NCBI GenBank assembly: GCA_964475045.1 | Contig: CAYYVD010000005.1 | Coordinates: forward strand, 1-32,000 | Length of the DNA stretch: 32,000 nucleotides | Direction of reading: 5' to 3' | Origin: an uncultured Desulfobacterales bacterium | GTDB taxonomy: Bacteria > Desulfobacterota > DSM-4660 > Desulfatiglandales > HGW-15 | Shown here: positions 5,916 through 24,174 of the stretch, one piece after another | How the letters are laid out: each line of letters starts with the position of its first letter | Position numbering within the stretch: the first letter of the stretch is position 1 | Program-made: the position numbers and the translations under genes | The notes under the pieces: generated by a model | Told to the model about the DNA's origin: nothing | Seen by the model: only the letters and a program-made list of their open reading frames with translations | Database searches by the model: none

Positions 5916-5916
5916 C

Positions 5917-5986: not shown

Positions 5987-5992
5987 CGCACC

Positions 5993-7651: not shown

Positions 7652-7718
7652 GTCGTTCCCTCCATTGATGTCGCATCGGTTGACCGCGAACGCCGGGGGA
7701 CTCGGGCGTCCATCGGTT

Positions 7719-8240
7719 TCACTTCTTGCCTTTGGATCCGCGCTCCCTCAGGCTGGCCTTGAAGTTGTCCCAGAACTCCTTGTTCGTGTCCTGCCAGGCG
7801 GCCCCCCACCTCCGCTCGAAGTAGGATGTGGGAAGGCGTTCCCTCCAGGCCGTCCAGGGGTTCTCCCCCTTGGCGCGGGCCTCGAAGACGTCCTCGAGGA
7901 AGACCTCGATGTTCGAGAGCTCCTCCTTGGGCAGGTAGGACAGCGCGCCCTTCTTGATGGAGCGCATCAGATGCTCCGGGGCGAACGCGTGGGCCGTCAG
8001 CATGACGGCCGGAATGTTCCGGGCCACCGCGATCTCCAGGAGGCGGTAGCCGTTCACGCCCATGATATCCAGGATGGCGAGATCGAAGGCCTCGTTCGCC
8101 AGGTGGTCCCGGGCCTCCTCGAAGGCGGCCGCCTGCACCAGCTCGCACATGGGCAGGAGCTCCTCCAGGGTGCTAAGAATGTCCCTCTCGTCGTCCACCG
8201 CCAGGATGCGTTTGCCCTCCAGGGGGCTCTTGTCCGGCAT
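7719..8240 (-). CDS. Stand-alone response-regulator receiver protein with a short Trp-rich C-terminal tail
   Basis: ILAVDDERD, DLAILDIMGVNG (phospho-Asp), MLTAHA and KKGALSYLPKE are receiver motifs. The tail of about 50 aa, ENPWTAWRERLPTSYFERRWGAAWQDTNKEFW, has no recognisable output domain. Confidence 0.85.
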   Translation of the reverse strand: MPDKSPLEGKRILAVDDERDILSTLEELLPMCELVQAAAFEEARDHLANEAFDLAILDIMGVNGYRLLEIAVARNIPAVMLTAHAFAPEHLMRSIKKGALSYLPKEELSNIEVFLEDVFEARAKGENPWTAWRERLPTSYFERRWGAAWQDTNKEFWDNFKASLRERGSKGKK

Positions 8241-8317
8241 GATTCGCTTCTCCCTTCTGTCGCATGGGCCGGGGCTCGGACCCGATCAAGCGTCGCCCGG
8301 GGGCGCCGGGGGGCGGT

Positions 8318-8345
8318 GGGGCGCCCGGGTTGCGCCGGGCGCCCC
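8318..8345. repeat. Perfect 11-bp GC-rich palindromic stem-loop 13 nt downstream of the UbiD-family stop
   Basis: GGGGCGCCCGG (8318-8328) pairs with CCGGGCGCCCC (8335-8345) across a 6-nt loop. No U-run follows. Confidence 0.5.
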
Positions 8346-8357
8346 TGGCCGGAACCG

Positions 8358-9767: not shown

Positions 9768-9951
9768 GTCTGCCTCGCCTCCTGATGGAAAGAATGGTTG
9801 CCGAACCGATGGGAACCCTCGCTCTCACGAGGCCTCCCGGGCCCCCTCGTGGGCCGGGGATGGTCGTTCCCCCACCTATTGAAGAGCCGCATGAGCCGCC
9901 TGTCCGCTCGCCGCCGTTTTCGCGGCTGAGGGCGGCGTTCCGCTCCGCGGC

Positions 9952-11022
9952 TTATCCCTTCAACTTGATTCGTTTCATGGCCTGGGCCATGAGGAGATCC
10001 CGGCCGCTTTTCTTTCCCAGCTTGGACTCCGTCTTTCTCTGACTCCACACGGTCTCCGGGCGGCCCTGGACGATGAAGATGTTCTCGGGGAAGGGCTCCG
10101 CCTCATCGATGGCCCACTCGATGTCCATGGGAACCCCGTAATGCTTTTCGATCTGCTTGGCCAGCTTGGTCAGCTCTCTGGTCTCCCGGTCCTCGAGACA
10201 GCAGAGGCACCCCTTTTCGGGATCCAGCTCCGCCTCCATGACCTCTCCGTGCTCCGGATCGAACACGCAGGCCACGTGCTTGGTGGAAACGTTCTTGTCG
10301 GTGGGCTCCAGCAGCACCTTGTCCATGGTGAACCGGTCGGGGTTCACCGTTCCGCCCACCACGGTCTCGCCGAGTCCCCAGGCCCCTTCGATGACGACCT
10401 TGGACACATCCCCGTCCGTGGGGTTCAGGGAGAACATCACGCCCGCGCACTTGGCGTTCACCATCTTCTGGACGCCCACGCTGATGAAGACCTTTTCGTG
10501 GGGAAAATCATTCCGAATGCGGTAGCTCACGGCCCGGGGCGTGAAGAGACTGGCCCAGCAGTCCTGCACCCTCTTCAGGACCCGGTCCGTGCCGACGACC
10601 CACAGGTGGGTGTCCTGCTGCCCGGCGAAGCTCGCCGTGGGCAGGTCCTCGGCCGTGGCGCTCGAGCGCACGGCCACGGGAAGGTTCTCCTCGGAGCACC
10701 TGAGGCAGAGCCCGGCATACGCCTCGGTGACGGCCGAGCGCATGTCCTCCGGCATGGGGGCGTTTCGAATGAGCTCCTGCACCTGCTCGCTGGCCTTGTG
10801 CACCGCGTCCACCGCTCCCAGCTGAAGCCCGGACAGCAGCTCGTACATCCGTTCCAGAATGCCCGTTCGATGAATGAAGTCCTCGTAGCAGGTGGTGGTG
10901 ACCGCGAAACCCGGCGGCACCCGGATGCCCGCCTTGAGCATTTCCCCCAGGCTGGCGTTCTTCCCGCCCACCAGCGCCAGGGAACCCTTGTCGAGGTTCT
11001 CGAATCGTTCCGTGTAGCTCAT
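9952..11022 (-). CDS. PEP/pyruvate-binding (ATP-grasp) domain protein, phenylphosphate-synthase beta-like (pair 1)
   Basis: 356 aa (~40 kDa). LVGGKNASLGEMLKAGIRVPPGFAVTT is the N-terminal nucleotide-binding part of PEP synthase. It has no phosphohistidine domain. Confidence 0.85.
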   Translation of the reverse strand: MSYTERFENLDKGSLALVGGKNASLGEMLKAGIRVPPGFAVTTTCYEDFIHRTGILERMYELLSGLQLGAVDAVHKASEQVQELIRNAPMPEDMRSAVTEAYAGLCLRCSEENLPVAVRSSATAEDLPTASFAGQQDTHLWVVGTDRVLKRVQDCWASLFTPRAVSYRIRNDFPHEKVFISVGVQKMVNAKCAGVMFSLNPTDGDVSKVVIEGAWGLGETVVGGTVNPDRFTMDKVLLEPTDKNVSTKHVACVFDPEHGEVMEAELDPEKGCLCCLEDRETRELTKLAKQIEKHYGVPMDIEWAIDEAEPFPENIFIVQGRPETVWSQRKTESKLGKKSGRDLLMAQAMKRIKLKG

Positions 11023-11090
11023 GCTGTCGCCTTTCCATGGTTCGGCCGGGGGATGTGCAGTCCCCCGTCGCGATTGGAACGTCCCTCAGG

Positions 11091-12953
11091 CTAGCCGACG
11101 CGTTCCAGGACGGTCACCACCCCGGTGTCGCCGTCCACCCGGATGATGTCCCCGGTCTTGATGCCGGCCGTGGCGATTCCCGTGCCCGTGACCGCAGGGA
11201 CCCCGTACTCCCGGCACACGATGGCGGCGTGGCTGGTCAGGCCCCCGATGTCGGTCACCGCACCGCGAATCTTGGCGAACACCGGCGCCCAGGACGGGTT
11301 GGTGTTGGGACAGACGAGGATCTCGCCGTCCTGGAGGTCCGTGATGTCCTTGAGGAGCTTCAGGACCCGGGCCGGACCTTCGTTCACGCCGGCCGAGGCC
11401 GCGAACCCCTTGATCTCGGAAAGGTCCTTGGCATCCTCGGCGGACACGCCCTTGAGCCACTCCTGGACCTTGTCTGTGGTGACGCCCCAGAGCATGATGG
11501 TGAAGGGCTCGGCCACCTCCTCGGGCGGGACGCCCAGGGCGGGGGGCGGGCTCCATTGCTGTGCGGCCTCCAGGATTTTTCTCCGCTTGGCCACCTTGGC
11601 CTTGTAGTACTGCCCGCGCACCGGAATGCCCTCGCCCAGGGCCCAGCCGGTGGACAGCTCGGTCAGGAGCTCCGGGATCTCGTAGCGGTGGAACATGAAG
11701 ATGTCGTCCGCCTCTTCGATGAAACCGTGATTCACCAGGAGCTGACCGAAGGTCCGCACCTTCTCGAACCAGATGGTGTGAAACCAGTGCTCCACCCAGA
11801 ACAGGTGATCCTCGGCGTAGCGGTAGATGGTGCGAATGGTGTTGTAGGCGTCGTCAAAGGACTTGCGGTCCTCGTCCGTGGAGATGAGGTCCAGGTACTG
11901 TCCGACGACCTTTTCCCGCTCCTGGTCGATGCTCTCGATGTTGCGCTCGATGGTCTCGCCCTTGTCCAGCAGGTTGAGGTATCCCTGGATGTAGCTGAAG
12001 GGGATGTCGAGGGTGTTGCACCAGCTGCCCTCGTAGTGGAACCACCCGCTGCCGCAGGACACGGAGAACCACGGGTCCTTGGCCTTCTCCAGCTCGGCGA
12101 GCCACTTGCGGCCGTCCTCGGTCCCTTCCAGCTCCTGAATCTTAACCTCGGCGCTCTTCTCGGCCTGGAGAACCTCCTTGACGGCCGGCAGGGAGTCGGC
12201 GAGCCGGGAGAGGCGGCAGAGCTCTTCCTCCGGCCTGAACATGGAGACGTACGCGCCGGCCACCATCTTGCCGATGGCGCTCTCGCTGATGCCCGGGAAG
12301 AGCTTGCGGCACACGTCGCCGAACATGAGGTAAGCCAGGTAGCTCAGGTTCAGCATCTCGAAGTGATACTGCCAGGCCTTGATCATGAGGTTGACCATGC
12401 GATCGAAGGTCTCGAGGATGTCGTAGGAGATGTAGCATCCCGTGGGCGCCGGGAGCACCTCCTCTTCCGGGACGTACTTGGGAAAGGCCGTGGGAATGTC
12501 CAGGCCCTTCATTTCCTCGCCCAGGGCCTTGAACTTGGTCAACCACTTGTCCCACATCTCGTCGTAGTGCTCGAAGATGTAGAAGACACGCTTTTCGAAA
12601 TGGGCCGCTTTCTCGCCGATGATCTCGTCGGGCGGCGGGGCCACGGCGCAGATGTAGAGGTAGCCGCCCACCAGGCGCTGGGCGATGCCCTGGGCCGGTG
12701 GAATACAGAAGACGCGTGTGGTGTACTGGGAGAGGGAGATTTGCCAGGCCTCCTGAAAGATGAGGTCCAGGGGCGGCATGGGGTCGGGTGCGTGGATCTT
12801 ATCCTGGTACCAGAAGTTGGACTTTTCCCAGTCCGAACGTTCTCCCAAGGTGAACAGGAAATGGGAGGGGTACATCTCCTCCCAGCCTTCGAGCTCCGGT
12901 GGAACCTGAAAATCGTGTGGATCCGGGAACCTTCCTGCCTTGTCTTCTGCCAT
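11091..12953 (-). CDS. PEP-utilising mobile-domain protein, phenylphosphate-synthase alpha-like (pair 1)
   Basis: 620 aa (~70 kDa) with C-terminal GGLTSHAAIVCREYGVPAV (phosphohistidine codon at 11229-11231). The N-terminal region is PDPHDF..EGWEEMYPSHFLF. GGGAGG sits 6 nt upstream of the ATG. Confidence 0.85.
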   Translation of the reverse strand: MAEDKAGRFPDPHDFQVPPELEGWEEMYPSHFLFTLGERSDWEKSNFWYQDKIHAPDPMPPLDLIFQEAWQISLSQYTTRVFCIPPAQGIAQRLVGGYLYICAVAPPPDEIIGEKAAHFEKRVFYIFEHYDEMWDKWLTKFKALGEEMKGLDIPTAFPKYVPEEEVLPAPTGCYISYDILETFDRMVNLMIKAWQYHFEMLNLSYLAYLMFGDVCRKLFPGISESAIGKMVAGAYVSMFRPEEELCRLSRLADSLPAVKEVLQAEKSAEVKIQELEGTEDGRKWLAELEKAKDPWFSVSCGSGWFHYEGSWCNTLDIPFSYIQGYLNLLDKGETIERNIESIDQEREKVVGQYLDLISTDEDRKSFDDAYNTIRTIYRYAEDHLFWVEHWFHTIWFEKVRTFGQLLVNHGFIEEADDIFMFHRYEIPELLTELSTGWALGEGIPVRGQYYKAKVAKRRKILEAAQQWSPPPALGVPPEEVAEPFTIMLWGVTTDKVQEWLKGVSAEDAKDLSEIKGFAASAGVNEGPARVLKLLKDITDLQDGEILVCPNTNPSWAPVFAKIRGAVTDIGGLTSHAAIVCREYGVPAVTGTGIATAGIKTGDIIRVDGDTGVVTVLERVG

Positions 12954-13318: not shown

Positions 13319-14314
13319 ATGATCAACCTGAATCAGCTCCGTGTGTTCTACCACGCCGCCAAGCACCAGAACTTCACCCGGGCCTCCGAGGAGCTCCACA
13401 TCACCCAGCCCGGCGTGACGTCCCAGGCCAGGCTGTTCGAAGGCACGTGCAACCTGGTGCTGTTCAAGAAGAAGGGGCGGCGGGTCTTTCTCACGGACGA
13501 AGGGAAGGTCCTGTACGAATACGCCCGAAAGATCTTCGAGATCGAAAAGGAGCTGGAGGATGCAGTGGAGGAGCTCCGCGCCCTCAAACGGGGCATGTTG
13601 CGTCTCGGGACCACCAAGGCCTATGCCCACTACTTCATGCCCGCCCTGATCACGGGTTACCACCAGGAGTATCCCAACATCCGCATCATCCTGGACGAGG
13701 GCAGCTCCCGGGACATGATTCGCAGCCTCCTCGAGTTCAAAAACGAGATCGCCGTCATCGCCAAGGCCGAGGACCACCCGGACGTGGCCTTCACCCCGTT
13801 CAGCCAGGAGGAGCTGGTTCTGATCGTCCCGCCCGACCACCCCTGGACCCGGCGCAGGTCCGTGAGGATCGAAGAGTTGGCCCCCGAGCCCATCATCATG
13901 AAGGACACGGGGTCCGGAACCCGCAGGGTGATCAACGACCTGTTCGCCCGCAACGGCTACGAGCCCAATGTGCTCATGGAGACGAGCAACACCGAGTTCA
14001 TCAAGGACCTCGTGCATCGGGGGGAGGCCGTCTCGTTTCTCGTGCACGAGTCCGTGGTTCTCGAGCTTCGGGCGGGCCGAATCGGCTCGGTCCGCCTGGA
14101 GGGCATCCGTCTGACCCTCGACGTGAGCATCGCCCACCTGAAGGACCAGCACCTCTCTCCCGCGGCCAAGGCCTTTCTCGACATCCTGCACGGCCTGTCG
14201 GTCTCCAGCATGCCCTACCAGGGCCTCGGCGCCATGATGACCGCCATGCTGGCCCGGCGTAAGCGGAACGCCGGAAGAAAAGGGAAGGGTGGCAAACCGA
14301 TGCCCGATCCTTGA
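13319..14314 (+). CDS. LysR-family transcriptional regulator 1
   Basis: INLNQLRVFYHAAKHQNFTRASEELHITQPGVTSQ is the winged-HTH, followed by a typical LysR substrate-binding domain. GGGAGG sits 4 nt before ATG 13319 (the track's TTG at 13301 is less likely). The C-terminus carries a basic extension of about 35 aa. Confidence 0.9.
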   Translation: MINLNQLRVFYHAAKHQNFTRASEELHITQPGVTSQARLFEGTCNLVLFKKKGRRVFLTDEGKVLYEYARKIFEIEKELEDAVEELRALKRGMLRLGTTKAYAHYFMPALITGYHQEYPNIRIILDEGSSRDMIRSLLEFKNEIAVIAKAEDHPDVAFTPFSQEELVLIVPPDHPWTRRRSVRIEELAPEPIIMKDTGSGTRRVINDLFARNGYEPNVLMETSNTEFIKDLVHRGEAVSFLVHESVVLELRAGRIGSVRLEGIRLTLDVSIAHLKDQHLSPAAKAFLDILHGLSVSSMPYQGLGAMMTAMLARRKRNAGRKGKGGKPMPDP

Positions 14315-14343
14315 GGCAGGGGCGGGAAAAGAAAGGACGGGGA

Positions 14344-15210
14344 ATGAGCGACGGTGCATTCTACGATGTGGTCGTGGCCGGGGCAGGGCCTGGGGGGGGC
14401 ATGGCTGCAAAGGCGTGTGCCGAGGCCGGCCTGAAAACGGTGCTCCTCGAGATGCGGGGCCTTCCCCGGGACAAGGTGTGCACCGGCATGATCATGGCCC
14501 CCTGGTGTGGTGCTCTCCTGACCTCCGAGTTCGGCCCGGTTCCGTTCCGGCGGTTCTACGACGGGGCCCTGGACATGGATCGCAAGGTCATTCACTGGCT
14601 CTTCCCCCGGTCCCGGCCGAGGCCGCGGTTCGATCTGGTGCACAAGGGGGAGGGGTTCCTGCTGGAAGGGAGCGGCGTACGCGATCTCGATGAGGAGATC
14701 CCGGCCATCCTCGCCGAGTACGGCTTTCGCGGGGACCGGCGGCCTGCTTGGAGGGACGGGTGTCTTGTGGCCCGGCTTCACGGCCCGCTCATCGACGGCG
14801 TGTTTCGCCCTGCAGCCGGGCGGGTGCTCCTGGTGGGCGATGCTGCAGGACTGATCCTACCGGTGACCTTCGAGGGCATCGGGACCGCCCTCGAAAGCGG
14901 GAGACTGGCGGCCGAGACCATTCAAAAAGCCGTCTGCGGGGGCGGGGAGGCGGCGGAAGGCTACCTGGCCGAGCTGGCTCCGCTCCTGGCCATGATCAGA
15001 CGGTTGTGCCGCCTGGAGGCAAGGTTGGAGCAGACGGCCGAGACGAAGACCGGAGGCCTGGCCGAGGCCCTGGCGTCGGCCTATGGCGAGGCCATGGAGG
15101 ACCCGCGCCCGGCGTCGGGACCCGGGAGGGGCGGCCTTCACGAACGTTGGGACGCACCCGGTGCCAGGAGGACCGGATCGAGCCGGGCCGCGCCGAAGCG
15201 CTCGCAGTAA
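14344..15210 (+). CDS. Atypically short geranylgeranyl-reductase-like FAD-dependent oxidoreductase (possibly an internally deleted remnant)
   Basis: It has YDVVVAGAGPGGGMAAKACAEAGLKTVLLE (GxGxxG), RDKVCTGMI and RVLLVGDAAGLILPVTFEGIGTALESG. Only about 160 aa separate the N-terminus from the GDAAG motif, where I recall roughly 280 aa in typical members. The junk-like tail overlaps the convergent DUF89 gene by 73 bp. Confidence 0.5.
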   Translation: MSDGAFYDVVVAGAGPGGGMAAKACAEAGLKTVLLEMRGLPRDKVCTGMIMAPWCGALLTSEFGPVPFRRFYDGALDMDRKVIHWLFPRSRPRPRFDLVHKGEGFLLEGSGVRDLDEEIPAILAEYGFRGDRRPAWRDGCLVARLHGPLIDGVFRPAAGRVLLVGDAAGLILPVTFEGIGTALESGRLAAETIQKAVCGGGEAAEGYLAELAPLLAMIRRLCRLEARLEQTAETKTGGLAEALASAYGEAMEDPRPASGPGRGGLHERWDAPGARRTGSSRAAPKRSQ

Positions 15211-16022
15211 GGGCGACACTTGGACAACAGCAGAAAGGCGGTCTTGTCCAGGATGGAGCGCGGCTCCTCGCCGAAAGAGTCGAAGTTGCCCCCTCCTTTG
15301 GAGATGATCAGGTCGCACGCCTCGATCCGGCGCCGGACCTCGGGTGAGCACCGCGCCAGTCGCGTTCCCGGGAAGGGCCCGGAAATTCCGTTCTCCATCA
15401 CCGGCAGGTCCTCTTCCAGCCCCGCGGAACCGATCTCGCCCAGGGTGACGTCGTTCATGGCCGGGCGGCTGCGCACCACCAGCACCACCTCTTTGCCCTC
15501 CTGTCGGAGCCGCTCCATCAGAAGGCCGTCCAGGACGATCTCCCCGGCGTTGTCGGCGAGGTAGACGATGGACCGGCTGCGGTCCAGGCGGCGGCGGAAG
15601 GCTCGAATCGCCTCAGGACGAAGGAGACGGGTCTCCAGCTCGGCGTCCAGCGTCTCGGGGCGGTCCGCCAGCATCAGGTCCACCGCATTGCCCAGGACCG
15701 CAAGACGGAGGGCGAGCTCCAGAGGGTCGCCGGCCTGGGAAACCTTCCCCTGGAGTCGGGGCTTCACATCGAGCATGGCCCGGTTCTGCCTCTGCTTGAG
15801 GTCCCGAAAGGGGTCCTGATCTCCCAGGGTGCCCGAAAGAATGTCCAGGACGGCTTCGATCACGTCCGGGCTGGTGACATCCCACGCGTGGCCGCAGAGC
15901 GCCGGGATCCGGGCGATCCGCGTGCAGACCTTGCGCATGCTTTCCTCGGGCAGCCCGATCTCGTGCATGCCCGAGACGGCCATCTGAAACACGCATGGAA
16001 TACAGTCCGGCTGAATGCGCAT
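15138..16022 (-). CDS. DUF89 (ARMT1-like) metal-dependent phosphatase family protein
   Basis: 294 aa. YLADNAGEIVLD and ISKGGGNFDSF match the DUF89 metal/phosphate-binding motifs as I recall them. The start lies 3 nt after the upstream stop. Confidence 0.8.
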   Translation of the reverse strand: MRIQPDCIPCVFQMAVSGMHEIGLPEESMRKVCTRIARIPALCGHAWDVTSPDVIEAVLDILSGTLGDQDPFRDLKQRQNRAMLDVKPRLQGKVSQAGDPLELALRLAVLGNAVDLMLADRPETLDAELETRLLRPEAIRAFRRRLDRSRSIVYLADNAGEIVLDGLLMERLRQEGKEVVLVVRSRPAMNDVTLGEIGSAGLEEDLPVMENGISGPFPGTRLARCSPEVRRRIEACDLIISKGGGNFDSFGEEPRSILDKTAFLLLSKCRPYCERFGAARLDPVLLAPGASQRS

Positions 16023-16025
16023 GGG

Positions 16026-16685
16026 CTAAAAGCTCTTCATCATCTCACGCATGATGTAAGGCACCTCGATGCGGCCGGTGGGAGCGAGGATGCGGCTGCT
16101 GTACTCCGTGCCGTAGGCCTTCTTGAGGGTTCGGACCAGGCGGCGGAACTCGGAGGTGTCGATGGCCGCTGCGATGTCATGGATGTTCCGGGCGGTGCAC
16201 TCCGCCAGAATGCGCGGCCCCGATCCGACGGCCAGTCGCCACCCTCCGGTGATGGGCACCTTCAGATTCCGCATGGCCGGCACACACTCCTCCTTGACGA
16301 AGCGGTCGTGCTCCTCCTCTTTGCCCGGGACGATGTTGTAGTACTGGTTGAACTTCCACGCTCCGGCGCGAATTTTGTAAGGCTCCTGGTGGATCTTTCC
16401 CGTGGGGACCCAGACCTTGCTCGAGTAGTCGGAGACGAGACGGATCAGGGTTTGGAACACGATGCGGTACTCCCGCTTGGCCAGGGCCTCGATCAGGCTT
16501 TCGTTTCGGTCCACGGTGGCCACGGCCACGACCCTGGGGCCCTGCCCCACAGCCACGTAATAGCCGCCCAGGAGGCGGATGCCCAGCTGCTCCAGGGTCG
16601 GATTGAACTCATTGGTGACGAATGTCGAGTACTCGTCGAAGTGGTTGGTTTTCACGTCCCAGTACTGGGTGAAGAGGATGGTCAT
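16026..16685 (-). CDS. Internally duplicated (2 x ~105 aa) alpha+beta-barrel-like protein (NIPSNAP/Dabb-like), function unknown
   Basis: The two halves align at about 30% identity: FTQYWDV...GGYYVAVGQGPRV...EYR...YSSKVWVPTGKI against FNQYYNI...GGWRLAVGSGPRI...EFR...YSSRILAPTGRI. AGGAG sits 7 nt upstream of the ATG. Confidence 0.7.
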   Translation of the reverse strand: MTILFTQYWDVKTNHFDEYSTFVTNEFNPTLEQLGIRLLGGYYVAVGQGPRVVAVATVDRNESLIEALAKREYRIVFQTLIRLVSDYSSKVWVPTGKIHQEPYKIRAGAWKFNQYYNIVPGKEEEHDRFVKEECVPAMRNLKVPITGGWRLAVGSGPRILAECTARNIHDIAAAIDTSEFRRLVRTLKKAYGTEYSSRILAPTGRIEVPYIMREMMKSF

Positions 16686-16730
16686 GGCAGGCTCCTTCCC
16701 GGTGCTTTGGCCTCGCTCGGTGTTCGTTGT

Positions 16731-17759
16731 TCACATCTTGAAGACGCGGGTCATGAGCTCGGCGAGGTACTCTGAGTCTTTTTCCTTTTTCGGCGTGAAC
16801 TTGGCCGGCCGCGTCTGGACCCAGAAGAGGTTCTCCGGAAACGCCAGGTCCCGGTCGAAGACCCACTCCATGTCCTGGGGCATGTCGAAGTGGGCTTCCA
16901 CGTTCAGGGCGATGCGGACAATCTCCCGGACCTCCTCCTCCTCGAGACAGGGCTTCTCCCGAAGCTCGGGGGGAACGGCGGTGACGGCCGTCCCCCGGGC
17001 CTTGTAAGCCACCATCTTGGGCTTCGGGTTGATGGTGCTGTGGATCTGCCCGGTCTTCTTGTCCACGATGAAGGAGTCCGGAGTGATCTCTCCGCTCACC
17101 ACGCTTTCTCCGAGGCCCCAGTTCCCCTCGATGACCACGCCGGTCAGGTCGCCCGTGATGGGGATCACGGTGAGCGCGACGCCCGCGCACTTGGCGTTGA
17201 CCATCTTGAGGACCGCCACCCCGATGGGAGCCTTGTCCATGGGCATTCCCTTTTCCAGGCGGAAGGCGATGGCCCGGGTGGTGAAGGCGCTTCCCCACAC
17301 CTGGATCACCTTTTCCGCCACCTCGTCCTCTCCCTGGACGTTCAGGTAGGTCTCCATCTGACCGGGCATGCTCACGGCTCCGCTCGAGCGGGTCGCCACG
17401 GCCACATCCGGGCCTCCCGACGCTTCACAGACCCGGAGGTAGTGCTCGGAAAGCTCCCTCTTCATGGCCGGGGGCATGGTCCTCGCCTGGATGAGGTTCC
17501 GAATATAGCGGCTGGCTTCCACCTGGGCCTGCACATTGTGGTGAAGACGCTGCTCGTTCTGGCTCACGTAGTCCTGGATCTCCCGGCCCGTTCCGGTCTC
17601 CTCCATGAAGCGTTCGTAGCCCTCCACGGACACGGCAAAACCGGGCGGGACCCGCATTCCGAGGTGGGTCATTTCTCCGAGGTTTGCGCTCTTCTTGCCC
17701 ACCAGGTCGTTGTGCTGGCTCCGGAGCTCTTCGAGACGGTAAATCCATGGTTTCGTCAT
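16731..17759 (-). CDS. PEP/pyruvate-binding (ATP-grasp) domain protein, PpsB-like (pair 2)
   Basis: 342 aa with LVGKKSANLGEMTHLGMRVPPGFAVSV. It is collinear with the pair-1 beta-like protein. AGGAG sits 9 nt upstream. Confidence 0.85.
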   Translation of the reverse strand: MTKPWIYRLEELRSQHNDLVGKKSANLGEMTHLGMRVPPGFAVSVEGYERFMEETGTGREIQDYVSQNEQRLHHNVQAQVEASRYIRNLIQARTMPPAMKRELSEHYLRVCEASGGPDVAVATRSSGAVSMPGQMETYLNVQGEDEVAEKVIQVWGSAFTTRAIAFRLEKGMPMDKAPIGVAVLKMVNAKCAGVALTVIPITGDLTGVVIEGNWGLGESVVSGEITPDSFIVDKKTGQIHSTINPKPKMVAYKARGTAVTAVPPELREKPCLEEEEVREIVRIALNVEAHFDMPQDMEWVFDRDLAFPENLFWVQTRPAKFTPKKEKDSEYLAELMTRVFKM

Positions 17760-17786
17760 GTGATCTCACTCCTTTTGGGTCGGGCG

Positions 17787-17827
17787 GGTGAGGGCGCCCG
17801 GACCCGGTCGTCCGGGACACCCTCACC
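17787..17827. repeat. Interrupted 15-bp stem-loop in the ppsA2-ppsB2 intergenic spacer
   Basis: GGTGAGGG (17787-17794) pairs with CCCTCACC (17820-17827). An inner stem pairs CCCGGAC (17797-17803) with GTCCGGG (17810-17816). Confidence 0.5.
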
Positions 17828-17868
17828 GCGTACCTTTGGAATGGCCCGTCGGGGCGGGCCCGGCCGGG

Positions 17869-19548
17869 CTAGCCGAGGATGTAGACGACGCCCAGGTTTG
17901 CGTCCACCTTGACCCGCTGGCCGCTTTTGATCTTGGCGGTGCCTTCGAAGACGTTCATGACCACCGGGATGCCGTACTCCCGTCCCACGATGGCCGCGTG
18001 TGAGAGGCTGGCGCCCCGGTCCACCACCACGCCTTTGATCATGGAGAAGATGGGCGTCCAGCTCGGCGATGTGCTGGCGGCCACGAGAATGTCTCCTTCC
18101 TGGACGCGGTGCAGCTCGTCCTCCGACATGATGACGCGGGCGGTGCCCTCGGCCACGCCCGGCGAACCGCAGGTCCCATAGAGGTCCGCCTTGAGCTCCG
18201 GGCGAACGTCCGGCATGGAGCCCACCACCACCTTGAGGGCGATGGGGTCGTTGGACTGCACCAGCACGCCCATGGCCTGATCCAGGTCGAATCCCTCCTT
18301 CAGCATAACCGGCGGGTTGGGGTTCTTCTTCCACTCCTCCCACTCGGCCTTCCTGCGCTCCACGATGGAGCGGAGGTTGAACTGATCCGGGGCGATGCCG
18401 GCACGGCGCACCTCGTCCGGAATCAGGAAGAACATGTCCTCCGGGGCGTCGATGGCGCCCTCGGCCGTGAAGCGGCGGCCCAGCCCCAGAGCGCTTCTCC
18501 GCATCATGGCGTGGGTGTAGAGGTCCAGGTAATGGTCATGCTCCTCGCTGAACACGCCGCTCTTCTGGGCCAGGCGCATGAGCTGCTCGAACCAGGCCCG
18601 CTGCTCCTGGGGAACCTTGGCGAGAACCTCTTTCTCCGCGGCCAGCCGCTCCGCCTCGGTGTTGCTGCGCTCCTCGTCCAGGTTGAAGCCGCCCCCTTTG
18701 GACAGGAACTGTTTGACGGCCCCCAGGGCCGGTGTCGGATCCTCCACCCAGGTGGGCAGATTGATCTCGCTCATGCGCTGCATACGCCAGCCGTCCTCGT
18801 TCATGAAGTCCATGAAGTCCTTCATGAAGGCCTGCCCCTTTTCCGTCTCCTCCAGCTTTTCGCGGATGTCCGGCGCATCGTTCTCGAGGAACACCTCCGC
18901 CAGGCCCTCCTCCTCGGCGCGCTTGGAGAACTGCCAGAGCTTTCGATCCACCTGAAAGACCTTGTTGTCGAACCCGGAGACGAGCTTGTGAAAGAGGGGG
19001 GAGGTGTCGTCGATCTGGGCGATCTGGCGGCACATGTTTTCGAACAGGATGTAGGCCGTGTAGGTCCCGTACATCATGTACATGTGGATCTCCCACATGC
19101 GGCGGCAGGTGTTGATGGTCTCCTCGAAGTTCTCCAGGAGCTCGACGTTGCTCGCCGTGTCCAGGTTCAGCGCCTTGAGGGCCTCGTACCGGTTGAGGAT
19201 CTCGTTTACGAAATCGTTCCACAACCCGTCATAGTCCTCGATGAAGGGCAGGATCGCCTTCCGGAACGCCTCCTCACGGCGTTGTTTCTCTTCCTCGCTC
19301 TTGACCAGGAGCAGGGTCAGGTAGCCCCCGCCGTTCATGAACCGCCAGTCCCACCCTTTGACCGTGGGCAGGCTCAGCTTTTCCGCGCCGTACTGCATGC
19401 CGTGCCTGCAGAAGTTGATCCAGAACCAACCAAACATGGGCGTCCAGGGCGGCACGGAATGGGTCCCGTCCAGGAACCAGGCGGGCGACTGCTCGAAATC
19501 CTTTTCCGGATCGAATTCCAATCCCGGAACCACGTCGTAGACTTTCAT
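17869..19548 (-). CDS. PEP-utilising mobile-domain protein, divergent PpsA-like (pair 2)
   Basis: 559 aa from ATG 19548, which has AAGGAGG 5 nt upstream; the track's 19740 start adds a junk-like extension. The C-terminal motif is RGASLSHAAIVGREYGIPVV (His codon 17998-18000). The N-terminus MKVYDVVPGLEFDPEKDF differs from pair 1. Confidence 0.85.
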   Translation of the reverse strand: MKVYDVVPGLEFDPEKDFEQSPAWFLDGTHSVPPWTPMFGWFWINFCRHGMQYGAEKLSLPTVKGWDWRFMNGGGYLTLLLVKSEEEKQRREEAFRKAILPFIEDYDGLWNDFVNEILNRYEALKALNLDTASNVELLENFEETINTCRRMWEIHMYMMYGTYTAYILFENMCRQIAQIDDTSPLFHKLVSGFDNKVFQVDRKLWQFSKRAEEEGLAEVFLENDAPDIREKLEETEKGQAFMKDFMDFMNEDGWRMQRMSEINLPTWVEDPTPALGAVKQFLSKGGGFNLDEERSNTEAERLAAEKEVLAKVPQEQRAWFEQLMRLAQKSGVFSEEHDHYLDLYTHAMMRRSALGLGRRFTAEGAIDAPEDMFFLIPDEVRRAGIAPDQFNLRSIVERRKAEWEEWKKNPNPPVMLKEGFDLDQAMGVLVQSNDPIALKVVVGSMPDVRPELKADLYGTCGSPGVAEGTARVIMSEDELHRVQEGDILVAASTSPSWTPIFSMIKGVVVDRGASLSHAAIVGREYGIPVVMNVFEGTAKIKSGQRVKVDANLGVVYILG

Positions 19549-19798
19549 GCTTGCCTCCTTTTGTGTGGGGATGGATGGGCCGTCTCGAAAGTGGTTCGGA
19601 CGGGGTTTCTTCGACCGGCCGGGCATCCGGGACCGGACGTCTGGACTGAAAAGCGATGGGCGCAGCATGGAGAGCGGGGATCGAGCCGGACGAAAAACCG
19701 CGTCAAGAACCGGCGGCCTCGGACCGCTGGTGAAGCACAAGGCTGCAGAGAGATCGGGATCGAGAGAGCAGAAGGCCCATTGTGGTTTTCCGGCGTTC

Positions 19799-19812
19799 GA
19801 TCACCTCCTTTC
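19799..19812 (-). other. Orphan extended Shine-Dalgarno element (plus strand equals a 16S rRNA 3'-tail-like 14-mer)
   Basis: The minus strand reads GAAAGGAGGTGATC and the plus strand GATCACCTCCTTTC. The nearest ATG is 23 nt downstream, so no start codon sits at functional spacing. Confidence 0.4.
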
Positions 19813-19829
19813 ACAGAAGGGGGATTTCA

Positions 19830-20184
19830 TCACTCGTCGTCCACGAGCGTCAGGGCCCCCGGGGCGCACCACTTGACGCATTCGGGATCGGGAGGGTCCC
19901 CTCAGAAGTCGCACTTGAGGGGAATGCCTGTGTCCGGTTCCTTGAACACCGATTTGAGCGGGCAGGAGGCCCGGCAGACCACGCATCCGTCAAGATCGGC
20001 GCCGAGAAGGTGCACAATCCCCCTGGAGTTGCACGCGGCCTCGGTGTAGGGACCGGCAATCACCGGCAGACAGTAAGTCTCTGCCACGTACACGCGGATT
20101 CACGGCGTCCGTGTGCTTGAGGGAGCAGGCCACCTGGCACATCCTGCACCCGGTGCAGCGGCTGGGGTCGATGTGAATCCTCAT
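19830..20184 (-). pseudogene. Decayed poly-ferredoxin ([4Fe-4S] dicluster) gene
   Basis: The start is ATGA-coupled to the AOR stop (20181-20184). MRIHIDPSRCTGCRMCQVACS is intact. The frame shifts near 20095-20105 (..AVNPR then IRVYVAETYC). The internal cluster motifs are degenerate (CLPVIAGPYTEAAC, CVVCRASCP). An in-frame TGA at 19902-19904 is followed in frame by GDPPDPECVKWCAPGALTLVDDE*. Confidence 0.7.
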
Positions 20185-21689
20185 TCGCATCCCCCTTCCT
20201 CGGCCAGCCCCAGCTCCTGCAGCTTCTCCGGGGTGGGGGTGCCCTGGTCGTCCCACCCGCGAAGGGCGTAGTACTCAGCCAGCATGCGCTCCAGATGGAC
20301 CACCTGGTCCTTGACCCGGGGCTCCTCGGTCATTCGCCGGGGGAGGCGGTCATCTGTGCGGCTGAATCCCTCGCGGCGGTTGAAGATCCTTTCCAGGTTC
20401 CAGATTCTCTCTCCGATGCGCGCCAGTTCATCGGCCGTGTATTCCATGCCGGTGATGACGTTCAGCCAGGCCTGAAGCTTCTTCGCCCAGAGGGGGCCGT
20501 GGTAGATGATCCAGCACAGAATGGCGGAGTCCACCAGGGCCACGAAGTCCCGGTCCTTCACCGTGAAGGGGACGTGTTGGGCCGGGTCCTTGCGGCCCTC
20601 GTAAAAGGGGAGCGTGGCCTTGGTGTGGGAGGCCCCCACGTTGTTCGTGGCGTCCTGAAGGCCGATCCCCTCGAAGCCCTGGGGGTGCCAGGCGGGCATG
20701 CCCGACCCTTTGACGCCCATGAACAGCTCGGGGTGCCCGCATTGCTCTGCGAGGATCGCCCCTCCTTCGGCCACCCTGTCCCCGAAACCTTCCCGTAGGG
20801 CCGTCTGCTTCATCAATCGGATCATGGCGTCCAGGTCGCCGAAGCGAACCGTGTATCCGATCTCGGCTTGGCCGATCACATCGCGTTCGAACAGCTCCAT
20901 CACGCACGAGACGGTGGCGCCCGTGCTGATGGTGTCCATGCCGAGCTCGTTGCACAGGTAGTTGGTCCGGCAGATGTCCGCCAGGTCCCCGATCCCGCAG
21001 TTGGACCCCAGGAGGGCCATGCTCTCGTGCTCCGGGCCCTTGGCCGTGCCCGGGTAGGCGGGATCCGATATTCGGCTGCGCTTGCTGCACGCGAAGGGAC
21101 ACCCGAAGCAGGCCTCGTCCCGGACGCGGATTCGATCGCGAATGACGGCAGGATCGTCGAATGCCGTGAAGGGCTCGAAGAAACCGGCCTGGAAGTTCAT
21201 GGCGGCCTGAGTCCACGTGGCGTTGGCCCGGCAGGGCAGCACCCAGGTCCCGTACATCAGGCGGTTCCGCTTCCCCCACAGGTGCGAGGCCGGGCGGATC
21301 TCCACGCGATCGTCCCGGATGTAGAGATACACCGGCTCCTCGGCGCTTCCTTCCACCACCAGCACGTCATAGCCCGAGTACTTGAGGTGGGCCCCGAAAT
21401 ATCCTCCACAGCAAGGGTTTGCGATCCCTCCGCTCAATGGGCTCTTGGAGACCACGATGAAGCGCCCCCCGGCGGGCACGCCCGAACCCGTGAGCGGCCC
21501 GGTGGCGAAGAAGAGCTTGTTCTCAGGGGCCAGAGCGTCGGTCCCCGGTGCGATCTCGTCGAAGAGCATGCGCAGCCCGACGCCCCGGCCGCCGATGTAC
21601 TTCCGGGCGAGTTGTCGGGACAGGTTTTCCACGGCGATGTGCCCGCGGGTGAGGTCCACTCTCAGGATGTTGCCCTTCCATCCGTGCAT
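20181..21689 (-). pseudogene. Aldehyde:ferredoxin oxidoreductase (tungsten AOR) family gene with an in-frame internal deletion of about 100 aa
   Basis: 502 aa, where I recall about 600 for the family. The N-terminus MHGWKGNILRVDL, the EACFGCPFAC cluster motif and C-terminal YYALRGWD are present. HLWGK joins almost directly to ..YGTWVL...NFQAGFF (junction near 21255-21270). The IGPAGE / AGRGG.GAVMGSK segment as I recall it is therefore missing. Confidence 0.65.
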
Positions 21690-22136
21690 GGCGATTTCCC
21701 TTCTTCCGTACCGCCTTTCCCCGGGTTTCGTCCAGCGTCACCGCACCGAAGGGACAGACGGCCGCGCAGGCCCCGCAACCGACGCAGAGCGTTTCGTCCA
21801 CCGCCCCTAGGTTTCCTGTGCGGTCCACGCCTCCCGGGAGAGCACGGTCATGGCCCGGGCCGCTGCAGCGCGGGCCTGAGAAACGCTTTCCTCCATCAGT
21901 TTGGGGCCGTGGGCCATGCCGCAGACGAAGATCCCGTCCGAGGCGAAGTCCACCGGCCTGCAGATCTGACACTCCCAGCGCAACTCGGTGATCAGTCGGT
22001 GGGGCGTGTAGGAGCGGACCGCGTTCCAGGGGCAGCTCGCCGTGCACATGCCGCACTGAAAGCAGCGCTTGAAGCTCTCACCGCCGGCGTCCCGGATGAG
22101 GTCGGAGGCCTCTTTGAATGGCGCTGTCGCTTGCAA
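21690..22136 (-). pseudogene. Chimeric HdrC-like/HdrA-like remnant with a frameshifted ferredoxin tail
   Basis: The 109-aa ORF carries FKRCFQCGMCTASCPWN..RWECQIC (HdrC-like, with the second cluster motif cut). This is fused to RPVDFASDGIFVCGMAHGPKLMEESVSQARAAAARA (HdrA-like C-terminus). The expected continuation GAVDETLCVGCGACAAVCPFGAV lies in another frame (about 21700-21800). Confidence 0.55.
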
Positions 22137-22153
22137 TGGACTTCACGTCCTCT

Positions 22154-22918
22154 CTAGTGCATGAGCCTTCCCCCGTCCACGAGGAGGGTCTGTCCGGTCA
22201 TGAAATCGCTTTCGCTGGAGGACAGGTAGAGAAACGGCCCCTGCGATGTCTTCGGGCGTGCCGACCCGGCCCAGAGGGGCTTTCGAGGTGTCGTACTTGG
22301 AGACGTCCGCGAGTCGCCGACTCGCCTCGGTGTCGATGAACCCGGGGCGACGGCATTGATGGCGATGCCGTGGGGCCCCAGCTCCACGGCCAGGGCCCGG
22401 GTGAGACCCATGACACCGCCCTTGGAGGTCACGTAGTGAGCGAATCCGGTGGAACCGGTGAAAAAAACCTCGGAGGCGATGTTGACGATCCTCCCGTAGC
22501 CCTGCGCTTTCATGTGGGGAAACACGGCGCGTACCGCGAGGAAGACCCCCTTGACGTTCACGCGCATCACCAGGTCCCACTCGTCGAGGTCGATCTCGGT
22601 AAAGGGCCTTCTTTGAATGCCGTCATAGACGGCCGCGTTGTTGACGAGGATGTCCACCCGGCCGAAGGCCTCGGCGGCGGCTTGGGCCATGGCCCGGGTC
22701 TCGTCCTCGTTGGACACGTCCGCCTCGAAGGGAACGGCATGTCCACCCATGGCCTGAATCCGCTCGACGGTTTCTCGAAGGTCGTTTCGATCCTGTTGGG
22801 TCAGCCCGATGTTCATGACCAGGACACTCGCTCCCTCGCGCGCGAGCGCCAGGGCAAAGGTTCGTCCCAGACCCCGGGCCCCGCCTGTCACGATGACCGA
22901 TCGGCTCTCGAGTCGCAT
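22154..22918 (-). CDS. Short-chain dehydrogenase/reductase (SDR) carrying two compensating frameshifts
   Basis: VIVTGGARGLG, NNAAV and YVTSKGG (the Y-x3-K motif) are present. GGAGGG lies 7 nt before ATG 22918. Between about 22340 and 22232 the open frame reads SSTPRRVGDSRTSPSTTPRKPLWAGSARPKTSQGPF. The canonical FIDTEASRRLADVSKYDTSKAPLGRVGTPEDIAGAV is in the adjacent frame (track ORF 22143..22580). Confidence 0.8.
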   Translation of the reverse strand: MRLESRSVIVTGGARGLGRTFALALAREGASVLVMNIGLTQQDRNDLRETVERIQAMGGHAVPFEADVSNEDETRAMAQAAAEAFGRVDILVNNAAVYDGIQRRPFTEIDLDEWDLVMRVNVKGVFLAVRAVFPHMKAQGYGRIVNIASEVFFTGSTGFAHYVTSKGGVMGLTRALAVELGPHGIAINAVAPGSSTPRRVGDSRTSPSTTPRKPLWAGSARPKTSQGPFLYLSSSESDFMTGQTLLVDGGRLMH

Positions 22919-23198
22919 GATGGATCCCTCCGTCATGGGACGGGGAGGCTGTTCCCCGCCGGATTGGGAGGGTTCGTTTCTTTGACGAAACTGAGAGCGT
23001 TGCCGTCCGATTCAGGGTTTCGGGTTCTGTGTGTCCGGCTTCGATATGACCACTCCCGCAGCACGCTGCGGGCTGTTTCCCTGATGCACGCTCCCTCTGT
23101 GGGGAGGCTTCGGAAGAGGATAGGCATGAGGCGGGCCATGGAGACGGCCCCGTTTCGAAGAAGCTCCTTCAGTTTCTTCGATTCTGATGAGTTCCGTA

Positions 23199-23246
23199 TT
23201 GACTTGTCAAAACAATTGAATTTATATTGATATAAGTTTTTCTTAT
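23199..23246. promoter_or_regulatory. LysR operator plus divergent promoter module, copy B (SDR operon / lysR-2)
   Basis: The dyad is ATAAGtttttCTTAT (23232-23246). TGTCAA (23205-23210) reads TTGACA on the minus strand, 21 nt away. On the plus strand, TTGACT (23199-23204), N18 and TATATT (23223-23228) form a sigma70-like promoter for lysR-2, whose predicted start falls in the dyad. Confidence 0.65.
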
Positions 23247-23274
23247 GCTTTGTGCTTGCGGTCCCCTCATGCAG

Positions 23275-24174
23275 ATGAACCTCAATCAGTTGCGCGTCTT
23301 CTATCTGGTCGCCCGGGAGAAAAGCATCACCCGCGCCGCGGAGAGGCTTTTTGTGACCCAGCCCGCCGTGACCATGCAGGTTCGGGCCATGGAGGAGCAG
23401 CTGTCCCTGAGGCTGTTCAAACGCCACGGCCGGGTCCTCAGGCTCACGGAAGGGGGCCGCGTCCTCTTGGGGTACGCCCGAAAAATCTTCTCGATCGTCG
23501 ACGAGATGGAGTCCGTGATCCCCCGTTACGCGGACCTCTCGGAAGGGGCCCTCACCATCGGCACCACAAAAAGCTTTGCACGCCACCTCATGCCCGGCCT
23601 GCTCTCCCGCTTTCAGACCGCCTATCCCGGAATCCGGGTCTCTTTGAAAGAGGCCAGCTCCATGGAGATCGCCGAGGGGCTCGGGACGTTCAGGTACGAT
23701 CTCGGCCTGGTCGGCAGGCTCGAGTACGGCAGAAAGCTGACCGTGGTCGACTACACCAAGGAAGAGTTCTGCCTGGTGACCCCCCCGGACCACCGCTTCA
23801 CCCGCATGCAGGAGGTCTCCCTGGCCGACCTCAAGGGCGAACGGATCATCATTCGGGAGGAGGGGTCCGGCTCCCGGGACGCCATTCGCGTGCTCCTCGA
23901 ATCCCACGGCATCACGCCGTCCGTGCTGATCGAGGCGGGCAGCGTGGAGTTCATCAAGGAGTACGTCATCCAGGGAAAAGGGGTCTCCTTCCTATATATA
24001 CCCGAGATCGATCTGGAAGCCAGGATGGGATTGATCATTCCCCACAAGGTGCGGGAAGGTCCCATCCTGGTCCAGACCGTGGTCATCTACCCGAGGGACG
24101 TCGCGCTTTCCCCGGCGGCCAAGGCCTTCCTGGACCTGGTCACCCCTCAGAACTCGGCCTTGGACAGGCCGTAG
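23275..24174 (+). CDS. LysR-family transcriptional regulator 2 (paralog of regulator 1)
   Basis: MNLNQLRVFYLVAREKSITRAAERLFVTQPAVTMQV is the HTH. The C-terminal SPAAKAFLDL is shared with regulator 1. ATG 23269 or 23275 is the likely start. ATG 23245 lies inside the operator dyad. Confidence 0.9.
   Translation: MNLNQLRVFYLVAREKSITRAAERLFVTQPAVTMQVRAMEEQLSLRLFKRHGRVLRLTEGGRVLLGYARKIFSIVDEMESVIPRYADLSEGALTIGTTKSFARHLMPGLLSRFQTAYPGIRVSLKEASSMEIAEGLGTFRYDLGLVGRLEYGRKLTVVDYTKEEFCLVTPPDHRFTRMQEVSLADLKGERIIIREEGSGSRDAIRVLLESHGITPSVLIEAGSVEFIKEYVIQGKGVSFLYIPEIDLEARMGLIIPHKVREGPILVQTVVIYPRDVALSPAAKAFLDLVTPQNSALDRP

Follow-up and report, generated by a model that had tools for sequence, protein, structure and literature searches.

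The stretch of DNA analysed here (the window; 32,000 nucleotides, positions 1 to 32,000 of contig CAYYVD010000005.1 from an uncultured Desulfobacterales bacterium) carries at 15138-19548 a minus-strand row of four genes. In the direction of transcription they encode PpsA2 and PpsB2, a PpsAB-like split synthase pair, a 219-residue protein that we term p219, and a DUF89/ARMT1-type phosphatase (Table 1). At a G+C content of about 64%, many spurious open reading frames (ORFs) are expected in the window; the ORF list and Pfam searches identified all four genes as full-length. They are separated by gaps of 109, 45 and 3 nt, and a GGAG-type ribosome-binding site lies ahead of each. An initial annotation of the locus had described four genes with 45-nt and 3-nt gaps, and its coordinates, lengths and gaps were all borne out. 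The mechanically derived ORF of PpsA2 extends to a TTG at 19740; we took the ATG at 19548 as the start, which appears correct because homologues measure 559-560 aa. The spacer between PpsA2 and PpsB2 (17760-17868, 109 nt) contains a G+C-rich stretch (GGTGAGGG...CCCTCACC) that can form a hairpin and lacks a T-run.

Table 1. Features of the window referred to in the text, with positions counted from its first nucleotide
Feature	Position	Strand	Basis or remark
PpsA2 alpha subunit, 559 aa	17869-19548	-	Pfam PF00391, PEP-utilizers mobile domain, 3.4e-22
PpsB2, ATP-grasp nucleotide-binding subunit, 342 aa	16731-17759	-	Pfam PF01326 (PPDK_N), 2e-83
p219, 219 aa, tandem ferredoxin-like repeat (modelled)	16026-16685	-	annotated 'hypothetical' throughout the family
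DUF89/ARMT1-type metal-dependent phosphatase, 294 aa	15138-16022	-	Pfam PF01937, 2.7e-44
4Fe-4S ferredoxin gene remnant, frameshifted, after AOR	19830-20184	-	intact orthologue in locus L004 (L004:6411-6779)
Tungsten-type aldehyde:ferredoxin oxidoreductase (AOR), 502 aa	20181-21689	-	Pfam AFOR_N and AFOR_C
SDR, first gene of the likely transcription unit	22154-22936	-	NCBIfam SDR matches
Divergent sigma-70-like promoter pair between the SDR and LysR genes	23181-23228	.	promoter search
LysR-type regulator, divergent from the SDR to DUF89 row	23245-24174	+	groups with ORF cluster cl9
CtmB-like (CrtI-family) flavoprotein	24147-25790	-	Pfam Amino_oxidase; NCBIfam crtI_fam and CrtO below cut-off
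ETF beta	25849-26640	-	Pfam ETF
ETF alpha	26637-27626	-	Pfam ETF, ETF_alpha
Membrane Fe-S oxidoreductase	27623-29167	-	Pfam Fer4 and Nitrate_red_gam
FAD-dependent oxidoreductase, convergent with DUF89	14311-15210	+	Pfam FAD-binding matches, N-terminus only
PpsA1, 620 aa	11091-12953	-	passes NF006153 (853 > 578)
PpsB1, 356 aa	9952-11022	-	pairs with PpsA1
UbiD	8358-9767	-	passes phenylphosphate carboxylase beta cut-off (505 > 469)
4-Hydroxybenzoyl-CoA-reductase-alpha-like molybdenum cofactor (Moco) protein	152-2527	-	917 bits against a cut-off of 995
UPF0261	4599-5873	-	part of the first module
Acyl-CoA ligase	5993-7651	-	part of the first module

In PpsA2 an Rph_4th-like substrate domain at the N-terminus is followed by a phosphohistidine swivel domain at the C-terminus; PF27448 is a precomputed match on its homologues. 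The swivel histidine, His517, lies in the sequence SLSHAAIVGRE, a motif kept in 119 of 120 homologues, and lines up by the motif SHAAIV with His575 of PpsA1, the alpha subunit of the other synthase pair in the window. Residues 220-558 of PpsA2 align with residues 546-866 of the rifampin phosphotransferase (RPH) structure 5fbs (E 1e-26). PpsB2 is covered by PF01326 from residue 18 to residue 329 of 342 and matches the N-terminal third of phosphoenolpyruvate (PEP) synthase models. The catalytic modules of the pair, namely the ATP-grasp, the swivel His517 and the substrate region, are all intact. At the family level, the sequences identify PpsB2 and PpsA2 as a predicted split enzyme of the PEP-synthase/phenylphosphate-synthase/rifampin-phosphotransferase type. 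The best NCBIfam match of PpsA2, NF006153, reached 232.5 bits against a cut-off of 578, and all PRK08296 cut-offs were missed. Since the protein in addition shares only about 25% identity with PpsA1, its description as part of a second, divergent pair in the initial annotation is accurate.

We gathered 76 distinct genomic loci around p219 homologues (79 in the survey for UbiD given below) and compared them by tblastn with the window proteins and by all-against-all clustering of their ORFs. All of them stem from metagenome-assembled genomes of Desulfobacterota (Desulfomonilaceae, Syntrophaceae, Desulfobacterales, Desulfatiglandales and similar groups), with groundwater, soil, peat, lake and marine habitats among those sampled. 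The trio was counted in the 62 independent loci that had at least 3.3 kb of upstream DNA. PpsA and PpsB were encoded directly upstream of p219 in 59 of these, at p219 identities of 45-87%, and at this frequency the arrangement is not a matter of chance. Identity to the window proteins in the closer loci amounted to 78-95% for PpsA2, which is remarkably high for a catabolic enzyme compared between families, 62-91% for PpsB2 and 54-87% for p219. A distant clade (loci L072-L079) retained the trio with p219 at 45-48% and PpsA at 67-68% identity; on NF006153 its PpsA scored 242 bits, likewise under the cut-off of 578. As judged from these comparisons, PpsA2 and PpsB2 appear at the family level as a new, very strongly conserved subfamily of this enzyme type.

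The conserved unit consists of three genes, PpsA2-PpsB2-p219. Synteny in other genomes holds for these three and not for DUF89, which in only 11 of 66 loci begins at most 60 nt downstream of p219, and the four-gene module of the initial annotation has to be reduced accordingly. We found no description of the trio or of p219 in the searchable literature, where synthase-like proteins led only to the paper on Desulfatiglans anilini (PMC7500099). Metagenomic sequences that carry the trio number in the hundreds (Desulfomonilaceae, Syntrophaceae and Desulfobacterales); its genes are annotated there at most as 'PEP-utilizing enzyme' or 'hypothetical', and the p219 family, for which Pfam and NCBIfam hold no model, thereby gains its first functional context. 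Locus L003 (CP070771.1, a 7.2-Mb Desulfobacterales genome) carries a decayed module with a 130-aa PpsB fragment and an intact p219, without PpsA.

No family in Pfam (E <= 0.01) or NCBIfam was matched by p219, and because there is no Pfam match the protein is not of the CBS type. Its halves, residues 1-108 and 109-219, are 33% identical over 103 aa (E 2e-20), in line with the internal duplication seen in the initial annotation, and the motifs AVG.GPR and P[TS]G[RK]I occur in both. Among 5.8 billion proteins we found 443 homologues at E <= 1e-3, nearly all of exactly 219 aa and 60-95% identical to the window protein; every source name reads 'hypothetical protein'. A profile search of 1.84 billion cluster representatives found 197, and the profile found nothing among PDB sequences (best E = 2). 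An AlphaFold2 model built on a 31-sequence alignment (pLDDT 80.3, pTM 0.71) contains two beta-alpha-beta-beta-alpha-alpha-beta units. Its best PDB neighbours in Foldseek were the tandem-ABM 'putative monooxygenases' 3f44 (4.5e-11), 3mcs and 2pgc, within a range of E 4.5e-11 to 1e-9, TM of about 0.6 and 8-16% sequence identity. HemQ/chlorite-dismutase-type barrels ranked lower, and NIPSNAP (1vqy, 5kak) fits each half of p219. The protein thus models as a tandem ferredoxin-like (ABM/NIPSNAP-like) alpha+beta barrel, and the model, Foldseek and Pfam agree with the earlier guess of a NIPSNAP/dimeric alpha-beta-barrel fold without CBS. As the PDB neighbours are functionally uncharacterised structural-genomics proteins, no function transfers from them to p219. 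Links at the level of sequence are marginal: one family member has a precomputed NIPSNAP hit, relatives being otherwise mostly sub-threshold for NIPSNAP, and a 207-aa relative lies just over the DUF4286 cut-off (26.5 vs 25.8).

Invariant in the family are the Gly-rich hairpin AVG.GPR of both halves, His126, Cys134, Asp10, Glu162 and several Arg/Lys residues, together with a C-terminal tail, PTGR.E.P...M.K.F, which is disordered in the model and probably serves as a docking segment. With a mass of about 25 kDa (24.6-25.2 kDa across the family, median pI 9.13) and the third position after PpsA and PpsB, p219 corresponds to PpsC in location and size, as had been proposed. Single-domain relatives of about 100 aa sit in unrelated gene contexts, so that it is the 219-aa family in particular, rather than the domain itself, that is linked to the synthase.

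Further p219-like genes were found in several clusters. A tandem pair of paralogues of 206 and 214 aa, 24-32% identical to p219, lies between the SDR and AOR genes in L001 (L001:3839-5152) and in L028, L032, L034, L043, L052 and L055, all of one cluster type (type C); from this position we conclude that the p219 family has diversified within the same pathway. Second, solo p219 copies away from PpsB are present in L017, L021, L022 and L027; such copies (65-69% identical; e.g. L021:395-1042) lie beyond the LysR gene on the opposite strand. The proteome table of Desulfatiglans anilini (PMC7500099) lists a 'hypothetical protein', H567DRAFT_01535, of 219 aa, 24.7 kDa and pI 9.09, which adjoins a Mo-dehydrogenase of 687 aa (01534) and was present in cells grown on 4-aminobenzoate, phenol or benzoate. 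By its size and pI it may be a p219 homologue; among the top 120 matches of a Desulfatiglandales query there was no D. anilini protein.

What p219 does can be approached from the arrangement of the genes. We think it would be the dedicated third component of the phosphotransferase, most likely a substrate-presenting or stimulatory subunit; alternatively, it might act as the next enzyme on the phosphoester, as a tautomerase or lyase. The subunit role is favoured because the junction of PpsB and p219 is the only one that stays unbroken throughout, and we put its probability a little short of even, with the next-enzyme role clearly behind it as a somewhat doubtful option. A related explanation holds that p219 is independent of the synthase and merely co-transcribed with it, as a cofactor-free isomerase, tautomerase, lyase or carrier of hydrophobic substrates. 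Its fold superfamily is indeed rich in cofactor-free enzymes and ligand binders (ABM, NIPSNAP, HemQ and chalcone-isomerase type), the same clusters hold the 206- and 214-aa paralogues and a separate conserved 106-aa ABM protein, solo copies exist, and the invariant His126, Cys134, Asp10, Glu162 and Arg/Lys could form an active or anion-binding site. Set against this are the near-invariance of the PpsB-p219 junction (the same 59 of 62 loci), in contrast to the changing positions of all other pathway genes, the invariant unstructured tail, which resembles a docking peptide more, and the fact that no catalytic motif of characterised barrel enzymes was recognised in p219. Independence from the synthase is therefore possible and, in our judgement, somewhat unlikely.

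The DUF89 protein of the window is a clear family member (PF01937, 152.1 bits against a gathering score of 25, residues 4-279). It carries DNAGE at residue 157 and KGGGN at residue 242, which are kept in 28 of 28 and 27 of 28 DUF89 proteins of the clusters and correspond to DN.GE and KG..N, which we take to be the metal-site motifs of DUF89. It stays under the NCBIfam cut-offs for damage-control equivalogs (107.6 vs 440 for NF040824; 93.8 vs 500 for NF041594). In addition to the loci with DUF89 after p219, five loci of the distant clade have a DUF89 gene directly upstream of PpsA, whose product is 25-31% identical to that of the window. From the two arrangements and the low identity between them we conclude that DUF89 was recruited more than once, pointing to a recurring need for a phosphatase. 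Context was counted in 35 loci, referred to as fully flanked, that had 9 kb or more of sequence to either side. Among these an HD-domain phosphohydrolase was the commoner partner, encoded in 22 as compared with 14 for DUF89; 28 had one or the other or both, both being present in eight. That HD and DUF89 replace each other was considered and rejected, as eight loci with both compare with 8.8 expected by chance. The HD protein has about 200 aa (L074:10823-11452 and 33 other ORFs), shows the H...HD motif in all 34 copies and had no match among NCBIfam models or PDB sequences.

DUF89 is an accessory, variable and occasional partner of the trio. One could go further and take it for a damage-control phosphatase of general function, with no bearing on the chemistry of the synthase, that lies downstream by chance in this lineage. 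The low number of adjacent copies fits this idea, as do the loci without any phosphohydrolase nearby (seven of the 35), the scores under the curated equivalog cut-offs and the fact that DUF89 is the least conserved of the four genes, with 41-46% identity in most adjacent copies. We consider it rather unlikely all the same, since two DUF89 subfamilies occur in two arrangements, downstream of p219 and, in the distant clade, upstream of PpsA, a DUF89 and/or HD phosphohydrolase is present in four fifths of the fully flanked loci (28 of 35), and only 3 nt separate p219 from DUF89 in the window. A link of DUF89 to a PEP-synthase-type phosphotransferase, or to phenylphosphate synthase, was not described in the literature that we could search. 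Phosphohydrolases found repeatedly beside a phosphorylating catabolic enzyme offer a testable case of either on-pathway dephosphorylation or metabolite damage control.

The module does not stand by itself. ORF clustering places the trio in a recurrent gene set, arranged in several orders among the loci, that is a conserved cluster of SDR, CtmAB-flavoprotein, ETF and aldehyde-oxidoreductase genes. A CtmAB-type flavoprotein was encoded in 33 of the 35 fully flanked loci, with one or two CrtI-family copies per locus, an SDR in 31, usually directly upstream of PpsA, and AOR or a MOP-type aldehyde oxidoreductase in 32. The MOP variant (898 aa) is of the Desulfovibrio gigas type, in which two 2Fe-2S domains and the molybdenum cofactor-binding domains are joined in one chain, and its gene is followed by those for a DsrC-like protein and a cysteine desulfurase. 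ETF alpha/beta and the membrane Fe-S oxidoreductase follow p219 directly as a block in about 11 loci. A LysR gene, usually divergent, was present in 17 of the 35, and the gene sets of other loci include sigma-54 regulators; the LysR regulator of the window was grouped by its translation with cl9, a member of which, in L045, matches Pfam HTH_1 and LysR_substrate. A 106-aa ABM protein is encoded right after or before p219 in 32 loci (L045:10680-11000 and 31 others; mean column identity 82%), in the distant clade between PpsB and p219, and is absent from the window; hhalign detected no profile similarity between it and p219 (probability 0.9%).

The flavoproteins were compared by motif only. Limonene dehydrogenase CtmAB and the stigmasterol desaturase delta24-SD share the covalent-FMN consensus G-F-L/R-x-N/S-T/L-H-A (PMC11061730). 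The alpha-type flavoproteins of related loci carry GFLHNTHA, an exact fit, and the single copy of the window reads GFRGNFCAHF, the beta-type copies likewise having a GF[LR].N.CAH variant. The benzene 'Magic' cluster (PMC13101534, PMC13416013) was considered as a relative and discarded: its flavoproteins are of the VAO/PCMH/GlcDEF type and unrelated to the cluster described here. A literature search on ketones with sulfate reducers brought up nothing relevant.

At E <= 1e-10, UbiD homologues were absent from all 79 loci surveyed around the trio, in agreement with the earlier statement that the module has no cognate UbiD. The suggestion that the trio feeds the UbiD of the window does not hold, given this absence and the fact that this UbiD adjoins its own bona fide PpsB1/PpsA1 pair. 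For the same two reasons the proposed analogy of DUF89 to the phosphatase-like subunit of phenylphosphate carboxylase is weak. The first module of the window (152-12953, minus strand), with its Moco protein, UPF0261, ligase, UbiD, PpsB1 and PpsA1, mirrors the 'ani' cluster of D. anilini, in which a Moco subunit, Pas-beta, UPF0261, an acyl-CoA synthetase, Pas-alpha and UbiD are encoded (PMC7500099).

These findings bear on a second reading of the pair, in which PpsA2/PpsB2 is a phenylphosphate or phenylphosphoamidate synthase for phenol or aniline, a UbiD encoded elsewhere carboxylates the product, DUF89 acts as the phosphatase-like subunit of the carboxylase and p219 takes the place of PpsC. 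Among curated families, PpsA2 is indeed nearest to the PRK08296 phenylphosphate-synthase-alpha-like models, and its 'short alpha' layout (559 aa, His517) is like that of Pas-alpha (554 aa, His512) from D. anilini, an organism that draws together genes located in different clusters (PMC7500099). The ani-cluster member UPF0261 recurs beside the trio in about 15 loci, the trio of L021 is followed by a CoA ligase with 62% identity to that of the window, and the window itself holds UbiD, CoA ligase and a 4-hydroxybenzoyl-CoA-reductase-like gene. The survey of 79 loci speaks against the reading, as do the constant neighbours, since SDR, CtmAB-type flavoproteins and aldehyde oxidoreductases have no place in the carboxylation of phenol or aniline. 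Moreover, the UbiD of the window (505 > 469) stands beside its own PpsA1 (853 > 578), and refolded Pas-alpha-beta is active in vitro without a third subunit (PMC7500099). We therefore regard aryl carboxylation as an unlikely function of the trio.

Two promoter-like sites, against 0.6 expected, lie between the LysR and SDR genes and form the sole pair detected. No terminator-like site was detected on the minus strand from 15138 to 22936, and the row from the SDR gene through DUF89 may form a single transcription unit. A sigma-54 promoter search returned six matches against 10.3 expected, none of them upstream of the module; an Rfam scan of the window matched no RNA family, and the long intergenic regions of the window contained no inverted repeats. 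The 3' ends of DUF89 and the convergent FAD gene overlap by 73 nt, and a comparable overlap is found in L004.

Taking the trio and its neighbours together, we favour, with slightly better than even confidence, a His-swivel, AMP+Pi-forming phosphotransferase with a dedicated third component that acts inside an anaerobic oxidation route. The group that the trio activates is probably a hydroxyl or an enol, in an anaerobic pathway leading from methyl via alcohol and aldehyde to acid. From the chemistry of the superfamily, ATP would load His517 of PpsA2 with release of AMP and Pi; the phospho-His domain would then swing to the N-terminal domain and phosphorylate an oxygen nucleophile of a small organic substrate, the candidates being a phenolic, enolic or alcoholic OH and, less likely, an amine. 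The gene context suggests that the CtmAB-type flavoproteins and ETF would carry out an allylic or benzylic C-H oxidation, that the SDR would convert the alcohol to the carbonyl and that the W- or Mo-dependent aldehyde oxidoreductase would convert the aldehyde to the acid. The phosphohydrolase, DUF89 here and HD in many relatives, might remove the phosphate after the activated intermediate has been transformed, or might clear mis-phosphorylated dead-end products as damage control. Mis-phosphorylation has a precedent in the 25-hydroxysteroid kinase, which also phosphorylates 26-OH-steroids that are not intermediates (PMC8449060).

Several observations weigh against this assignment. Homologues come exclusively from uncultured organisms; no similarity to PpsC could be detected for p219, none of whose close relatives is characterised, and solo p219 copies exist away from PpsB. 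DUF89 and HD occur statistically independently of each other (eight loci with both observed, 8.8 expected), and seven of the 35 fully flanked loci have neither within 10 kb. Within the presumed transcription unit the gaps between PpsA2 and AOR and between AOR and SDR reach 632 and 464 nt. AOR lacks about 101 aa in frame, corresponding to residues 141-241 of the 603-aa L004 orthologue, to which it is 90% identical; it is probably non-functional, or else the deletion is an artefact of assembly. The 632-nt 'gap' contains a broken gene for a ferredoxin, of 122 aa in L004, that is disrupted in the window by a 17-nt deletion and a TGC>TGA change. The FAD gene lacks about 110 aa, residues 68-177 of the 381-aa L004 orthologue. 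Either the accessory oxidation genes are decaying in this host or the assembly is imperfect. Given these long gaps and damaged genes, the proposed pathway may be incomplete in the host. A frameshift in the SDR gene was also considered and rejected: the SDR aligns full-length and in one frame with cluster SDRs at 57-64% identity.

A more specific version of the favoured phosphotransferase, which we regard as a long shot, makes the trio an enol-/alcohol-phosphate-forming activation machine in which phosphate is a transient activating group and not a leaving group for carboxylation. A ketone may then be trapped as its enol phosphate, or a tertiary alcohol may undergo elimination to give an alkene; p219 and the ABM protein may serve here as tautomerase or lyase. 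The neighbouring methyl group would thereby become allylic, and CtmAB-type flavoproteins, SDR and the W/Mo oxidoreductase may convert it to the carboxylate before DUF89 or the HD protein strips the phosphate last. If true, an acetone route would end directly in phosphoenolpyruvate, and sulfate-reducing bacteria would possess a carboxylase-independent and oxygen-independent route for methyl ketones.

Without oxygen, phenol and aniline enter metabolism through split phosphotransferases of the PEP-synthase type. If there is a third branch, very strongly conserved, with an obligatory partner and set in another pathway context, it would point to a further class of phosphorylation-activated compounds in anoxic soils, aquifers and sediments. 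In Thauera aromatica the pps genes run in the order alpha-beta-third protein, and the third protein has about 24-25 kDa. The trio has the same order and a third protein of similar mass, is likewise split into an alpha subunit with substrate domain and swivel His and a separate ATP-grasp beta subunit, and would be expected to share the ATP to AMP chemistry. Unlike its counterpart, PpsA2 is about 60 residues shorter (His517 vs His569-575) and lies below the PRK08296 cut-offs; p219 models as a tandem ferredoxin-like barrel and not as a CBS-pair protein, and the trio has no linked UbiD carboxylase and other pathway neighbours. Two of five features of PpsABC, the swivel His and a PPDK_N beta subunit, are thus found in the trio, and three, a score above the curated cut-off, a CBS subunit and linkage to UbiD, are missing. 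The T. aromatica enzyme is that of Schmeling 2004 and Narmandakh 2006, as cited in PMC7500099.

Closer in layout is Pas-alpha/Pas-beta of D. anilini (H567DRAFT_03871/03868), whose alpha subunit is 27% identical to Pps-alpha (PMC7500099). Both systems have a short alpha subunit and a beta subunit of about 350 aa, a likeness of length, mass and His position only, and both have a UPF0261 gene in the neighbourhood and a Desulfobacterota host. The ani cluster differs in having UbiD and CoA ligase genes between or next to those of the subunits and no described third protein, whereas the trio is never linked to UbiD in the 79 loci.

RPH (5fbs, 5hv1) and PigC/RedH have the same modules of ATP-grasp, substrate domain and swivel His, but they are single polypeptides of about 865-880 aa with neither an accessory barrel protein nor a catabolic context; the NCBIfam matches reached 109-142 bits, far under the cut-offs. 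As RPH and PigC/RedH illustrate, the phosphorylation targets of the superfamily extend beyond phenols to aliphatic alcohols and to aldehyde or enol oxygens. The DUF89 protein resembles the DUF89/ARMT1 damage-control phosphatases in its Pfam domain and both motifs and differs in scoring under their equivalog cut-offs. With the tandem ABM/NIPSNAP barrels (3f44, 3mcs, 2pgc, 1vqy) p219 appears to share the fold, at 8-16% identity and without membership in a Pfam family.

A parallel to the proposed route is the anaerobic oxidation of the cholesterol side chain, in which a 25-hydroxysteroid kinase and a phosphate lyase act before allylic oxidation to the aldehyde and acid (PMC8449060, PMC11061730). 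In both, a hydroxyl group would be phosphorylated, an allylic position exploited and a methyl group oxidised via the alcohol and aldehyde to the acid. The likeness is one of analogy only, because this kinase comes from another, unrelated family of phosphotransferases and its nucleotide product is ADP, not AMP+Pi. The CtmAB-type flavoprotein family is common to the cluster around the trio and to the stigmasterol delta24-desaturase.

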